A stretch of 64,000 nt of DNA from Escherichia coli. Lineage in GTDB: Bacteria > Pseudomonadota > Gammaproteobacteria > Enterobacterales > Enterobacteriaceae. Of this stretch, positions 5,162 to 56,140 are shown piece by piece. Position 1 is the stretch's first letter. The number at the start of each line of letters is the position of its first letter. The notes beneath the pieces were generated by a model that made no database searches, was not told the DNA's origin, and worked only from the letters and a program-made list of their open reading frames with translations. Where the stretch lies: the NCBI RefSeq assembly GCF_003334785.1, contig NZ_QOWV01000001.1. The stretch is one strand, 5' to 3'. The translations under genes were made by a program, and so were the position numbers.

Positions 5162-5170
5162 GGTTTAATT

Positions 5171-5246
5171 GTCGGATGCGCCGTCAGAGTGGCGTATCCG
5201 ATGAATCACCACAGGCCTGATAAGTCGCGCAGCGTCGCATCAGGCA
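5171..5246. repeat. REP-type palindromic elements
   Basis: Imperfect GC-rich palindromes (gtcggatgcg..., gcctgataag...catcaggc) between convergent genes. Confidence 0.6.
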
Positions 5247-10625: not shown

Positions 10626-10791
10626 AAGAATTTAGCCGTTTTTTATGCGCGATTAAGTGATTATAAAACAGAGGGTTTATGAATGATTGCGCTTTTTATC
10701 TGAAAAAAGACGCGGTTTCATGCCTGCATGCGTCGAACCGTTGGCCGGAGAGGGCGCTAAGGCCGCCTCCGGCAAGGTCAGCACTACCGAC

Positions 10792-24249: not shown

Positions 24250-24465
<216 letters not shown>

Positions 24466-32001: not shown

Positions 32002-34023
<2,022 letters not shown>

Positions 34024-34060
34024 CAGGATAGCGAAGAAGACTGATGACAAACGGAAAACA

Positions 34061-34159
34061 GCCTGATGCGCTACGCTTATCAGGCCTACATTTTCTCCGC
34101 AATATATTGAATTTGCGCGGTTTGTAGGCCGGATAAGGCGTTCACGCCGCATCCGGCAT
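34061..34159. repeat. Composite REP-spacer-REP element (BIME/RIP-like)
   Basis: gcctgatgcgctacgcttatcaggcc ... caatatattgaatttgc ... gtaggccggataaggcg..gccgcatccggc. Confidence 0.8.
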
Positions 34160-34214
34160 AAACAACGCGCACTTTGTCTTCAATAGGAAGCCGGAATTTT
34201 CCTTCGGATTTCCG

Positions 34215-35183
<969 letters not shown>

Positions 35184-35344: not shown

Positions 35345-35389
35345 AAAGTGTGGATGGTAAAAATCTCATTTACACGCTAGTATCGGCAT

Positions 35390-35519
35390 AACCACTAAAC
35401 ACTCTAGCCTCTGCACCTGGGTCAACTGATACGGTGCTTTGGCCGTGACAATGCTCGTAAAGATTGCCACCAGGGCGAAGGAAGAAATGACTTCGCCTCC
35501 CGTATCTGGAAAGGTGTAC
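35390..35519 (+). ncRNA. Probable molybdenum cofactor (Moco) riboswitch leader
   Basis: Long structured 5' leader before moaA whose end overlaps the RBS; identified from the known moaA leader architecture, boundaries approximate. Confidence 0.5.
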
Positions 35520-36509
35520 ATGGCTTCACAACTGACTGATGCATTTGCGCGTAAGTTTTACTACTTGCGCCTGTCGATTACCGATGTGTGTAACTTTCGT
35601 TGCACCTACTGCCTGCCGGATGGCTACAAACCGAGCGGCGTCACCAATAAAGGCTTTCTTACCGTCGATGAAATTCGCCGGGTTACGCGCGCCTTCGCCA
35701 GTCTGGGCACCGAAAAAGTGCGCCTGACAGGAGGAGAGCCGTCTTTACGCCGCGACTTTACCGATATCATCGCCGCTGTGCGGGAAAACGACGCTATCCG
35801 CCAGATTGCGGTCACAACCAATGGTTACCGTCTGGAACGCGATGTGGCGAGCTGGCGCGATGCGGGACTTACTGGCATTAACGTCAGTGTCGACAGTCTG
35901 GACGCCCGCCAGTTTCACGCTATTACCGGGCAGGATAAATTCAACCAGGTCATGGCAGGGATTGATGCTGCATTTGAGGCCGGTTTTGAGAAGGTCAAAG
36001 TCAATACCGTGCTGATGCGTGATGTTAATCATCACCAGCTCGACACCTTTCTGAACTGGATCCAGCATCGCCCTATCCAGCTGCGTTTCATCGAACTGAT
36101 GGAAACGGGCGAGGGCAGCGAGCTCTTCCGTAAGCATCACATCTCTGGTCAGGTTCTGCGTGACGAGCTACTGCGTCGCGGCTGGATCCACCAATTACGT
36201 CAACGCAGCGACGGTCCCGCGCAAGTCTTTTGCCATCCAGATTACGCCGGAGAGATTGGCCTTATCATGCCGTATGAAAAAGACTTCTGCGCCACTTGCA
36301 ACCGCCTGCGCGTTTCCTCCATTGGTAAACTCCATCTCTGCCTGTTTGGTGAAGGCGGCGTTAACCTGCGCGATCTGCTGGAAGACGATACCCAGCAACA
36401 GGCGCTGGAAGCGCGTATTTCAGCGGCGCTGCGGGAGAAGAAACAGACCCATTTCCTGCATCAAAACAACACCGGTATTACGCAAAACTTATCGTACATT
36501 GGCGGCTAA
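35520..36509 (+). CDS. moaA: GTP 3',8-cyclase (radical SAM)
   Basis: Start placed at [17 protein letters not shown]; CNFRCTYC motif; 329 aa. Confidence 0.93.
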
Positions 36510-49347: not shown

Positions 49348-50712
49348 ATGTCTTTCGATTCTTTGGGTTTAAGCCCTGATATCCTGCGCGCCGTTGCCGA
49401 GCAGGGTTACCGTGAACCCACCCCTATTCAGCAGCAGGCGATCCCTGCGGTGCTGGAAGGCCGCGACCTGATGGCTAGCGCCCAGACCGGCACCGGCAAA
49501 ACAGCGGGCTTTACGCTGCCGCTGTTGCAACACCTGATCACTCGCCAGCCGCACGCCAAAGGGCGTCGTCCGGTACGTGCGCTCATTCTTACCCCGACCC
49601 GTGAACTGGCGGCGCAGATTGGCGAAAACGTCCGTGATTACAGCAAATACCTGAACATTCGTTCGCTGGTGGTGTTTGGTGGTGTGAGTATTAACCCGCA
49701 GATGATGAAACTGCGTGGCGGCGTTGATGTGCTGGTGGCAACCCCGGGACGTTTGCTGGACCTGGAACATCAGAATGCAGTGAAGCTGGATCAGGTTGAA
49801 ATCCTCGTCCTCGATGAAGCTGACCGCATGCTCGACATGGGCTTTATCCACGATATCCGTCGCGTGTTAACAAAACTACCTGCGAAGCGCCAGAACCTGT
49901 TATTCTCCGCGACCTTCTCTGACGATATTAAAGCCCTGGCGGAAAAACTGTTGCACAACCCGCTGGAAATCGAAGTGGCACGCCGCAATACCGCGTCTGA
50001 TCAGGTGACCCAGCACGTTCACTTTGTCGATAAGAAACGCAAACGCGAATTGCTGTCGCACATGATTGGGAAAGGGAACTGGCAGCAGGTGCTGGTGTTT
50101 ACCCGTACCAAACACGGCGCTAACCATCTGGCTGAACAGCTCAATAAAGATGGCATCCGTAGTGCGGCGATCCACGGCAATAAATCGCAAGGTGCGCGTA
50201 CTCGTGCGCTGGCTGATTTTAAATCGGGCGATATTCGTGTACTGGTGGCAACTGACATCGCTGCGCGCGGCCTGGATATTGAAGAGCTGCCGCACGTCGT
50301 CAACTATGAACTGCCAAACGTACCTGAAGATTATGTCCACCGTATCGGGCGTACCGGTCGTGCGGCTGCTACCGGTGAAGCGTTGTCGCTGGTGTGTGTT
50401 GATGAACACAAACTGCTGCGTGATATCGAAAAACTGCTGAAAAAAGAGATCCCGCGCATTGCGATTCCGGGCTATGAGCCGGACCCGTCAATCAAAGCCG
50501 AACCGATCCAGAACGGTCGCCAGCAACGTGGCGGCGGCGGTCGTGGGCAAGGTGGTGGTCGCGGTCAACAGCAACCACGCCGTGGGGAAGGTGGCGCAAA
50601 ATCTGCAAGCGCGAAACCTGCAGAAAAACCGTCTCGCCGCCTCGGCGATGCCAAACCGGCAGGCGAACAACAACGTCGCCGCCGTCCGCGTAAACCTGCC
50701 GCTGCGCAGTAA
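49348..50712 (+). CDS. rhlE: ATP-dependent DEAD-box RNA helicase
   Basis: 454-aa ORF; GKT Walker A, DEAD box (VLDEADRM), RG-rich basic C-terminal tail. Confidence 0.95.
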
Positions 50713-50764
50713 TCTTTTATGCCGGGCTATGCCCGGCATCAGGCTGATGAACAAACGCAAAACT

Positions 50765-50864
<100 letters not shown>

Positions 50865-50943: not shown

Positions 50944-51426
50944 TTACTTCTCTATAGCCAATTGTTCGCGCAACTCCATTAAAAGGTAGCCCAGTCGATT
51001 CTTGCCCTTACCATGACCACCGTCTCCCCAGTAAGCATCGTTTTCCGTATGCTCAACCAGTTTTGCGGGCGCGGTTGCCAGCAAGAGCGCACGCAGTTCT
51101 GCATGCTGTTCGAATTTAGCGCGAAGTGCTTTTCGCATCACCTGTTCTTTGACCGACTCCCAGTTTTTACGCAGAGGCTTAGAACGATCGCGCCCCATGC
51201 GTGCGGCGACCATAGGGGAAGAAACCCGACGGATCTCTTCGCGGTATTTTTCATCAAGGAATTTTTGTGCCTGAAAATAGTGTTCTGAGGTGGGCCAGGT
51301 TTTCCCGTCAACCTTGATGGGCCAGGCGGCAAAGTTAGAAAAATCACCGTAGTCATCGCTGGTGCTGTAGAAATTTATGATGGTGTCTTGCATGACGTGT
51401 TGGATCCTTTGTGCTCGAACGGGCAT
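50944..51426 (-). CDS. ybiA: YbiA-family N-glycosidase (DUF1768)
   Basis: 160-aa ORF; divergent from dinG. Confidence 0.85.
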   Translation of the reverse strand: MPVRAQRIQHVMQDTIINFYSTSDDYGDFSNFAAWPIKVDGKTWPTSEHYFQAQKFLDEKYREEIRRVSSPMVAARMGRDRSKPLRKNWESVKEQVMRKALRAKFEQHAELRALLLATAPAKLVEHTENDAYWGDGGHGKGKNRLGYLLMELREQLAIEK

Positions 51427-55946: not shown

Positions 55947-56060
55947 GGGTAACATAGGATCAATGAGGGTTAGAGCATATGCGTCTGTCGGCAAACAGAC
56001 AGGGAAATACTTGTGCTGGACGTAGCGTAAACGCCTGATCCGTCCAACGGTTCGGATTTT

Positions 56061-56135
56061 GTAGGCCTGATAAGACGCGGTAGCGTCGCATCAGGCATCT
56101 GTTGCCGGATGCGGCGTAAACGCCTTATCCGTCCT
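56061..56135. repeat. REP palindromes
   Basis: gtaggcctgataagacgcg...gcatcaggc and gccggatgcggcgtaaacgccttatccg. Confidence 0.65.
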
Positions 56136-56140
56136 ACGAA

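Follow-up and report, generated by a model that had tools for sequence, protein, structure and literature searches.

Two BIME-1 copies downstream of uvrB and rhlE in Escherichia coli, and hairpin duplications at the borders of the BIME-1 unit

BIME-1 is a non-autonomous repeat of about 152 nt that is found in Escherichia and close relatives and consists of an outer motif, an inverted z1 REP, an L linker of 34–36 nt, a y REP and a second outer motif. The definition of the family is given in PMC3333891, PMC2817692 and PMC2892488, and the names RIB (reiterative IHF BIME) and RIP (repetitive IHF-binding palindromic element) are synonyms of BIME-1. RIBs lie at the 3′ end of transcription units according to Boccard & Prentki 1993, as reported in PMC2817692. 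IHF binding to the L linker is published for the family rather than for the two copies described here. More generally, transcribed REP hairpins block 3′–5′ exonucleases and thereby define and stabilise mRNA 3′ ends (PMC6061677), and REPs can attenuate transcription in a partly Rho-dependent manner (PMC2817692; PMC6061677; bioRxiv 10.64898/2026.03.23.713779). In the published model, transcription reads through the REP, Rho terminates it downstream and exonucleases trim the transcript back to the hairpin, which leaves a stabilised mRNA (PMC6061677). A 2026 preprint describes REPs as dual terminator-stabilisers whose effect depends on context, and reports that REPs between convergent genes accompany higher expression of both genes (bioRxiv 10.64898/2026.03.23.713779).

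We analysed two elements of this type in a 64,000-nt stretch of E. coli DNA (the window). Addition of 781,524 to a window position gives the corresponding position in NC_000913.3 (E. coli K-12 MG1655), the open reading frames coincide with the annotation of that genome, and a 2.2-kb query around the first element (element 1) is 100% identical to K-12 and to many other strains. The RefSeq annotation of NC_000913.3 lists no repeat features in the element region and thus supplies no RIP or REP label. The neighbouring genes, as annotated, are the following.

32002–34023, plus strand: uvrB, left neighbour of element 1
34215–35123, minus strand: ybhK (yvcK), right neighbour of element 1
49348–50712, plus strand: rhlE, left neighbour of element 2
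50944–51426, minus strand: ybiA, right neighbour of element 2

The first-pass annotation had described two composites of common architecture and about 90% identity, placed at the 3′ ends of plus-strand genes beside minus-strand genes, and our data confirm both statements. The uvrB/ybhK and rhlE/ybiA genes form convergent pairs with one element between each, and at both loci the element is a single unit and not a tandem array. Element 1 fills approximately 80% of the 191-nt uvrB–ybhK intergenic region. In a global alignment, 34061–34159 (99 nt) and 50765–50864 (100 nt) are identical in 91 of 101 columns (90%), both consist of a z1 REP, a linker and an inverted y REP, and both contain the motif caatatattgaatttgc. 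The elements had thus been located correctly but drawn too short and not identified as members of a known family; the similarity reaches about 25 nt further to the left and about 31 nt further to the right; with the flanks included, the two copies are 92% identical over 141 nt. The features of the two loci are listed below.

34036–34190, no strand assigned: full BIME-1 (RIB/RIP) element 1 between uvrB and ybhK, about 152–155 nt, delimited by the consensus of 63–64 copies and the empty allele of CCUG 73778
34036–34060, plus strand: left outer motif of element 1, GAAGACTGATGACAAACGGAAAACA (family consensus TGAGACTGATGACAAACGCAAAATT), conserved in most copies
34061–34089, plus strand: z1-type REP of element 1, inverted (iREP), 29 nt, GCCTGATGCGCTACGCTTATCAGGCCTAC, ending in CTAC
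34090–34123, no strand assigned: L linker of element 1, 34 nt, with a small internal palindrome CGCAA...TTGCG
34100–34112, minus strand: IHF consensus match in element 1, ATTCAATATATTG, 12/13 positions to WATCAANNNNTTR
34082–34123, minus strand: Rfam RF02751 match in element 1, L linker plus the GTAGGCCT head of z1, 43.4 bits
34124–34158, plus strand: y-type REP of element 1, 35 nt, starting with GTAG
34159–34190, plus strand: right outer motif of element 1, TAAACAACGCGCACTTTGTCTTCAATAGGAAG (consensus TGAACAAAGCGCACTTTGTCAGCAATCTGA)
34186–34214, no strand assigned: locus-specific hairpin adjoining element 1, GGAAGCCGGAATTTTCCTTCGGATTTCCG, −10.6 kcal/mol
50719–50739, no strand assigned: locus-specific hairpin at the left end of element 2, ATGCCGGGCTATGCCCGGCAT, −16.4 kcal/mol, 7 nt past the rhlE stop codon
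50739–50893, no strand assigned: full BIME-1 (RIB/RIP) element 2 between rhlE and ybiA, about 155 nt, delimited by alignment to the consensus and to element 1
50765–50793, plus strand: z1-type iREP of element 2, identical to the z1 iREP of element 1
50794–50828, no strand assigned: L linker of element 2, 35 nt
50804–50816, minus strand: IHF consensus match in element 2, ATTCAATATATTG, 12/13 positions
50786–50828, minus strand: Rfam ES036 match in element 2, 43.3 bits
50829–50863, plus strand: y-type REP of element 2, 35 nt, starting with GTAG

In both elements the reverse complement of the left arm is GTAGGCCTGATAAGCGTAGCGCATCAGGC, while the right arm, GTAGGCCGGATAAGGCGTT(C/T)ACGCCGCATCCGGCA, is inverted relative to the left arm GCCTGATGCGCTACGCTTATCAGGCCTAC. 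We assign the left arm to the z1 type and the right arm to the y type. The outer motifs, presumably the "A/B" flanking motifs named by Gilson et al. 1991, are related to each other, the right one being an imperfect inverted repeat of the left one (GACAAA / TTTGTC). The pair reads TGAGACTGATGACAAA... / ...TTTGTCAGCAATCTGA as putative terminal inverted repeats, and the outer helix that it forms is approximately 70% paired. Both intergenic regions fold better than shuffled sequences on both strands (z of −3.9 to −4.8), with each REP forming a separate hairpin. Across 63 copies, 97.8% of the stem cells are paired in z1 and 96.1% in y; in the covariation test on these copies the stems were 96–98% paired, and double (compensatory) changes were so few that they do not demonstrate selection on structure in addition to conservation of the sequence.

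Alignments of 63–64 copies reveal a conserved unit with the order TGAGACTGATGACAAACGCAAAATT, z1, L, y, TGAACAAAGCGCACTTTGTCAGCAATCTGA, and full-length copies span 148–166 nt with a mode of 152–153 nt. Many copies of the composite are present in Escherichia and Pseudocitrobacter genomes, which rules out that the two elements resemble each other by chance. In particular, among the matches listed (one genome per species), each Escherichia or Pseudocitrobacter genome contains the exact 18-nt linker core 7–15 times, almost invariably with a z1 REP on one side and a y REP on the other; the genomes concerned are those of E. albertii, E. whittamii, Escherichia sp. E1V33, two divergent "E. coli" lineages and Pseudocitrobacter. 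In unrelated taxa, the matches listed are mostly single cores without REP flanks, as expected by chance, and four short contigs assigned to unrelated taxa that carry a REP-flanked core look like E. coli contamination. The REP-linker-REP architecture is also present in 87 of 120 metagenome matches. When the K-12 uvrB linker was used as the query, it was found in 5419 of 5426 complete E. coli genomes, at a median of at least 11 places per genome and at up to 24; these counts are lower bounds given the short query, and about 11 close linker matches per genome is likewise the lower bound for the copy number in K-12.

The linker has a characteristic length, 34–36 nt in 135 of 144 strand-wise matches at enterobacterial loci, compared with 14–16 nt in BIME-2-type pairs. 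Copies that were collected through their REPs rather than through the core retain the ...ATTGAATTT... centre with one or two changes. Thus, the conservation of the linker is not an artefact of how copies were collected. With respect to gene orientation, 31 of 51 classifiable BIME-1 loci lie between convergent genes, 19 between tandem genes and one between divergent genes, and these counts reproduce the published rule that the elements occupy the 3′ ends of transcription units. The two sequences in the window are therefore canonical copies of BIME-1 and carry no novelty as such, the family having been described in 1991–1993 and annotated in K-12.

Both linkers (34 and 35 nt) contain GCAATATATTGAATTTGC. 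The proposal that a central motif of IHF type lies between the inverted REPs is supported, as the linker is the IHF site published for BIME-1 and, on the minus strand of both copies, agrees with 12 of the 13 positions of the IHF consensus WATCAANNNNTTR. Such matches are not specific on their own, since the 64-kb window contains 74 of them compared with 50 ± 8 by chance. IHF would probably bend the linker DNA between the two REPs. Neither the genes nor the coordinates concerned are mentioned in the Kasho 2021 GeF-seq supplements. Of the functions proposed for the elements, that of a nucleoid anchor is the weaker half: REP-REP pairs lack long-range chromosomal contacts in Hi-C, a result that questions a chromosome-organising role (bioRxiv 10.64898/2026.03.23.713779).

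The other proposed function, stabilisation of mRNA, is in keeping with the REP literature (PMC6061677; bioRxiv 10.64898/2026.03.23.713779). As the elements lie between convergent genes, we infer that each is located in the 3′ UTR of both of its neighbours. The z1 (−13.2 kcal/mol) and y (−20.9 kcal/mol) REP hairpins are positioned 38–53 nt past the stop codons, and the first hairpin that is met on either strand would act as a protective 3′ cap, presumably z1 on the uvrB and rhlE transcripts and y on those of ybhK and ybiA. Actual termination would probably take place further on, via Rho.

Stable GC-rich hairpins on both strands could instead mean that the elements are bidirectional intrinsic (Rho-independent) terminators of the convergent gene pairs, and 78 REPs are indeed contained within 306 predicted bidirectional terminators between convergent genes (bioRxiv 10.64898/2026.03.23.713779). 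However, a terminator scan revealed no U-tract or T-run after any REP hairpin in either element on either strand, which indicates that the elements are not intrinsic terminators. The same scan returned one weak site, located in the locus-specific hairpin at 34191–34207, and none in element 2. Moreover, supplementary file 2 of PMC7815308 lists a minus-strand Rho termination region at MG1655 position 815186, which transcription from ybhK would reach about 375 nt after element 1. Its position implies that minus-strand transcription crosses element 1 and is consistent with read-through of the element followed by Rho termination, and the attenuation published for REPs and BIMEs is likewise Rho-dependent. 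The lack of a U-tract and the downstream Rho region led us to reject intrinsic termination, which we consider improbable at these loci. The curated Term-seq 3′ ends of PMC7815308 (Adams 2021, supplementary file 1) include none within about 100 nt of either element, which may simply reflect low expression of uvrB and rhlE.

The linkers also match an Rfam family. The minus strands of elements 1 and 2 score 43.4 and 43.3 bits, respectively, against RF02751, "ES036 (CssrF) sRNA", and both exceed its gathering score of 37.6. Taken at face value, these scores would make the linker a small-RNA gene (RF02751, ES036/CssrF) on the minus strand to which the REPs are incidental. A northern blot of cssrF in Shigella flexneri detected an RNA of about 290 nt between dacB and yhbZ (PMC3071730), and an RNA overlapping another RIP, RIP126, was also seen by northern blot (PMC2773258), albeit with a caution from the authors about cross-hybridisation among RIPs. 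However, the 43-nt RF02751 model aligns over its full length to both linkers and consists of the L linker of BIME-1 together with the first 8 nt of z1 (GTAGGCCT). The model therefore matches every BIME-1. A consensus scan identified no sigma-70-like promoter in either intergenic region, and on the minus strand the ybhK and ybiA 3′ UTRs contain the linkers, so that any RNA is more simply a decay fragment protected by the REP. We therefore rejected an independent sRNA gene and judge it very improbable, still more so than intrinsic termination. RF02751 covers both linkers but appears to be a fragment of BIME-1 rather than a distinct gene, and it most likely describes REP-protected fragments of BIME-1 transcripts.

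As a whole, the elements are best explained as members of BIME-1 that share the functions of the family, with roles at these two loci as an mRNA 3′ cap, in read-through to Rho and as an IHF-bent linker that are inferred from it; we assign this reading a probability of about 0.85.

We compared the two sites among strains. A 621-nt uvrB–ybhK query is matched over at least 80% of its length by 3677 of 5426 E. coli genomes, whereas about a third of the genomes do not match, and the non-matching alleles that we sampled contain either an empty site or an unrelated insert. Thus, element 1 is dispensable, as judged by the sampled strains that lack it. In the empty allele of CCUG 73778, the spacer is 37 nt and harbors one perfect hairpin, ACGAAGCCGGAATATTCTTCCGGCTTCGT; relative to this allele, K-12 carries 34040–34190 as an insertion with GAAG at both junctions. 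Other strains contain an unrelated insert of about 115 nt with a boxC-like appearance at the site of element 1, and in one strain an IS1 is located exactly at the right boundary of the uvrB–ybhK BIME-1. At rhlE–ybiA, one strain has an IS621 inserted at the CTAC foot of the z1 REP and other strains carry islands after rhlE. Both intergenic regions are thus hot spots of strain variation, with an empty site, a boxC-like insert, IS1, IS621 and islands, and BIME-1 behaves as a discrete unit of insertion and deletion. Bachellier et al. are said to have described in 1997 the excision of a whole BIME-1, boxC insertions and the targeting of BIMEs by IS elements. In E. albertii and two divergent Escherichia lineages, element 1 occupies the identical site although uvrB is 86–94% identical, which argues that its occupancy there is old.

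At many BIME-1 copies, the same host sequence, which itself forms a terminator-like hairpin, directly borders the approximately 152-nt unit on its left and on its right. An abutting direct duplication of 11–29 nt is present at 23 of 42 non-redundant full-length loci (genome and metagenome loci pooled). Permutation of the flanks among loci (500 trials) yielded 0.16 such loci on average and never more than 3, and an independent replication came from the metagenome sample. At 35 of the 42 loci, at least one side has a hairpin of −8 kcal/mol or lower within 30 nt. Examples of duplicated flanks include CGGGTGGTAACACCACCCGT / CGGGTGGCAACGCCACCCGT, as well as ATGCCGGGTTTAAGCCCGGCATT and AACTCCCCCGCGAGAAGCGGGGGA, each of which is present twice. 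The flanks are correctly described as direct copies of one palindromic hairpin rather than as sequences of inverted complementarity.

Empty alleles with exactly one copy of the hairpin were found at three loci (uvrB–ybhK, agp–yccJ and metE–ysgA). At uvrB–ybhK, CCUG 73778 contains the single hairpin, strain E69 contains hairpin, BIME-1 and hairpin in that order, and K-12 contains BIME-1 with the right-hand hairpin and a GAAG remnant. The hairpin at 34186–34214, to the right of element 1, is therefore the surviving copy of the target hairpin. At agp–yccJ, the Nissle-derived strain SYNB1934 has the empty site, and E. coli 1919D3 and E. whittamii carry the element; at metE–ysgA, E. coli N1083 lacks the element and E. 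albertii carries it. In the empty metE allele, the hairpin is followed by TCTTTTCTC and forms an intrinsic terminator with it, and after insertion the T-tract stays with the downstream copy; thus, BIME-1 is incorporated into the 3′ UTR. Each of the two K-12 elements adjoins one hairpin, to the right of element 1 and to the left of element 2 (50719–50739), and the left-hand arrangement of element 2 is shared by CFT073.

We tentatively propose that BIME-1 is, or has been, a mobile unit of about 152 bp that integrates beside terminator-type hairpins and duplicates the whole hairpin (11–29 bp), a proposal to which we give somewhat less than even odds. Nicking at both feet of an extruded cruciform or hairpin would account for a variable stagger that equals the length of the palindrome, and such nicks could come from a hairpin-recognising enzyme, for example a REP-associated Y1 transposase. 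As judged from the sequences, a duplication of palindrome length suggests cleavage of this kind, and an alternative origin could be a replication template switch at the hairpin. The mechanism of REP insertion in vivo was described in March 2026 as still "not fully established" (bioRxiv 10.64898/2026.03.23.713779).

The same data bear on whether the elements serve the host at all. At these loci they might have no function for the host and be selfish or neutral mobile DNA that persists because insertion beside terminator hairpins is harmless. This would account for the presence or absence of the whole unit among strains, for other small repeats or IS elements at the same sites and for the MITE-like combination of imperfect terminal inverted repeats and target duplications; in addition, the complete hairpin copy left downstream of the insertion preserves the original 3′-end signal. 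Against it, element 1 has persisted for long, as K-12 shares its exact position with E. albertii and two divergent Escherichia lineages; conservation is much higher in the REP stems and linker core than in the intergenic DNA around them; and REPs have measurable effects on flanking mRNAs (PMC6061677; bioRxiv 10.64898/2026.03.23.713779). We regard an absence of host function as less likely than not, and prefer BIME-1 copies with the functions of their family.

Our results refine a known family in its true unit length, its strain polymorphism and its overlap with Rfam ES036. For repeat annotation, the approximately 152-nt unit is preferable to the 99-nt REP-linker-REP core, and the Rfam "sRNA" ES036 is a piece of the BIME-1 repeat. 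When BIME-1 inserts, the gene's own terminator is moved downstream, so that the repeat comes to lie within the 3′ UTR. Only the flanking hairpin duplication may be new; the more recent literature searched contained no description of this signature. The duplication constrains the mechanism of BIME-1 insertion and, if unreported, its occurrence at about half of BIME-1 copies is a signature that any model of REP/BIME mobility must explain.

Among described systems, the two elements match BIME-1/RIB/RIP (Gilson et al. 1991; Boccard & Prentki 1993; Oppenheim et al. 1993) on every tested feature, with no difference. They share with it the inverted z1 and y REPs, the L linker of 34–36 nt with an IHF consensus and the single copy per locus, as well as an extragenic position at gene 3′ ends, a multi-copy distribution and confinement to enterics; the addition made here is the copied unit of about 152 nt. 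BIME-2 and atypical BIMEs (e.g. REP325/naRNA4) have the y REP and the GTAG/CTAC heads in common with BIME-1. BIME-2 differs in its S linker of 14–16 nt that lacks an IHF site, in the use of z2 instead of z1, in tandem amplification and in gyrase binding. BIME-2-type arrays are present in the window at 24264–24459 and 56014–56138.

The RAYT-mobilised REPINs of Pseudomonas resemble BIME-1 as inverted REP doublets that form a long imperfect palindrome and are non-autonomous and extragenic. Their REP sequences are different, an IHF linker is not described for them and flanking hairpin duplication is not mentioned in the literature searched. The Correia/NEMIS elements of Neisseria share several features with BIME-1: both are short intergenic repeats of palindromic sequence, both contain a functional IHF site at the centre and both are co-transcribed with neighbouring genes (PMC2229807). 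Their sequence is unrelated to BIME-1 and they have classical terminal inverted repeats, whereas BIME-1 is bordered by hairpin duplications of a variable 11–29 nt. The target duplication of Correia elements is a fixed TA; that of BIME-1 is atypical in that its length varies and equals the hairpin.

A direct duplication of a locus-specific hairpin of 11-29 nt was found on both flanks of 23 of the 42 non-redundant full-length BIME-1 loci, pooled from genomes and metagenomes (0.16 in the null in which flanks were permuted among loci). The copies that bear on this are L019, L023, L039, L054, L056, L058, L060, L094, L099, L101, L108, L116, L117, L149, L155, L188 and L203 (L handles denote loci from other genomes or assemblies compared with the window; coordinates that follow a handle lie within that locus), together with two hairpins in the window:

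34186-34214, hairpin at element 1, the BIME-1 between uvrB and ybhK
50719-50739, hairpin at element 2, the BIME-1 between rhlE and ybiA

At uvrB-ybhK, agp-yccJ and metE-ysgA, alleles that lack the element have the hairpin only once. The flank duplication of BIME-1 looks like a target duplication that is defined by structure. In the flanks of L019/L181 and L188, the two copies of a duplicated hairpin differ by stem-preserving changes, for example GGTAACACC versus GGCAACGCC, and because these divergent changes leave each stem paired, they suggest that both copies remain under structural selection.

In Escherichia sp. E1V33, BIME-1 units are present as a tandem pair spaced by ~180-200 nt (L099 2374-2700; L098 161-420). 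At srmB-yfiE the repeated module consists of a BIME-1 plus the hairpin, which suggests that the tandem arose by unequal exchange between duplicated hairpins.

E. coli strains differ in their uvrB-ybhK spacer (window 34040-34190 compared with L122, NZ_CP041337, and L123, NZ_CP038505). Some strains have the K-12 type allele with BIME-1 present, others an unoccupied site bearing a single perfect hairpin, and a third allele harbors an unrelated insert of ~115 nt that includes CCCTCGCCCCTCCGGAGAGAGGGTTAGGGTGAGGGGA, a sequence resembling boxC. In E. coli SCPM-O-B-8794 (L043 2620-2700) the element 1 orthologue lacks 18 nt internally, so that the 5' half of its y REP hairpin is missing (GTAG------GCCGTATCCGGCA); the remaining sequence is intact.

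Elements 1 and 2 are themselves targets of insertion sequences. One IS1 insertion falls precisely on the right edge of element 1, following ...AATAGGAAG (L124, NZ_CP195969, 680-690), and one of IS621, of the IS110 family, at the CTAC foot of the element 2 z1 REP (L127, NZ_CP101269, 880-905). In some strains similarity to K-12 stops just 3' of rhlE (L125, NZ_CM135146; L126, O157:H7, NZ_CP038423); the sequence replacing the K-12 type encodes an antitoxin PaaA2/RelE-ParE toxin pair or, in O157:H7, carries the effector gene espX2.

Two matches to the Rfam model RF02751, "ES036 (CssrF) sRNA", lie in the window:

34082-34123, minus strand, RF02751 match
50786-50828, minus strand, RF02751 match

The model corresponds, position for position, to the L linker of BIME-1 together with the initial 8 nt of the z1 REP, and a match is therefore expected at every BIME-1 copy. 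What RF02751 labels as an sRNA is probably a fragment of the repeat.

Adams et al. 2021 (PMC7815308) list a Rho termination region at MG1655 815186 on the minus strand (window 33662), antisense within uvrB. Along the path of ybhK transcription this region lies ~375 nt past element 1, which implies that transcription reads through BIME-1 and is then terminated by Rho.

Perfect or near-perfect E. coli-type BIME-1 copies were also observed on short contigs of four non-enterobacterial assemblies, most likely reflecting E. coli contamination:

L003, Bacteroides MAG
L006, Desulfosporosinus sp. OT, 262 nt
L089, Alkalicoccobacillus, 720 nt
L091, Methylobacterium frigidaeris, 261 nt

The window contains further REP clusters, two of which are BIME-2-type arrays with linkers of 15-16 nt, and other RNA features:

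24264-24459, 56014-56138, 10737-10775 and 5168-5201, other REP clusters
24335-24405, plus strand, and 56064-56134, minus strand, Rfam naRNA4 (CssrE), threshold reached in BIME-2-type arrays
35388-35532, plus strand, Moco riboswitch upstream of moaA (Rfam, 103.6 bits)
1-291, two identical tRNA genes and an RtT RNA match at the window start

The Moco riboswitch and the tRNA/RtT RNA features are already known.
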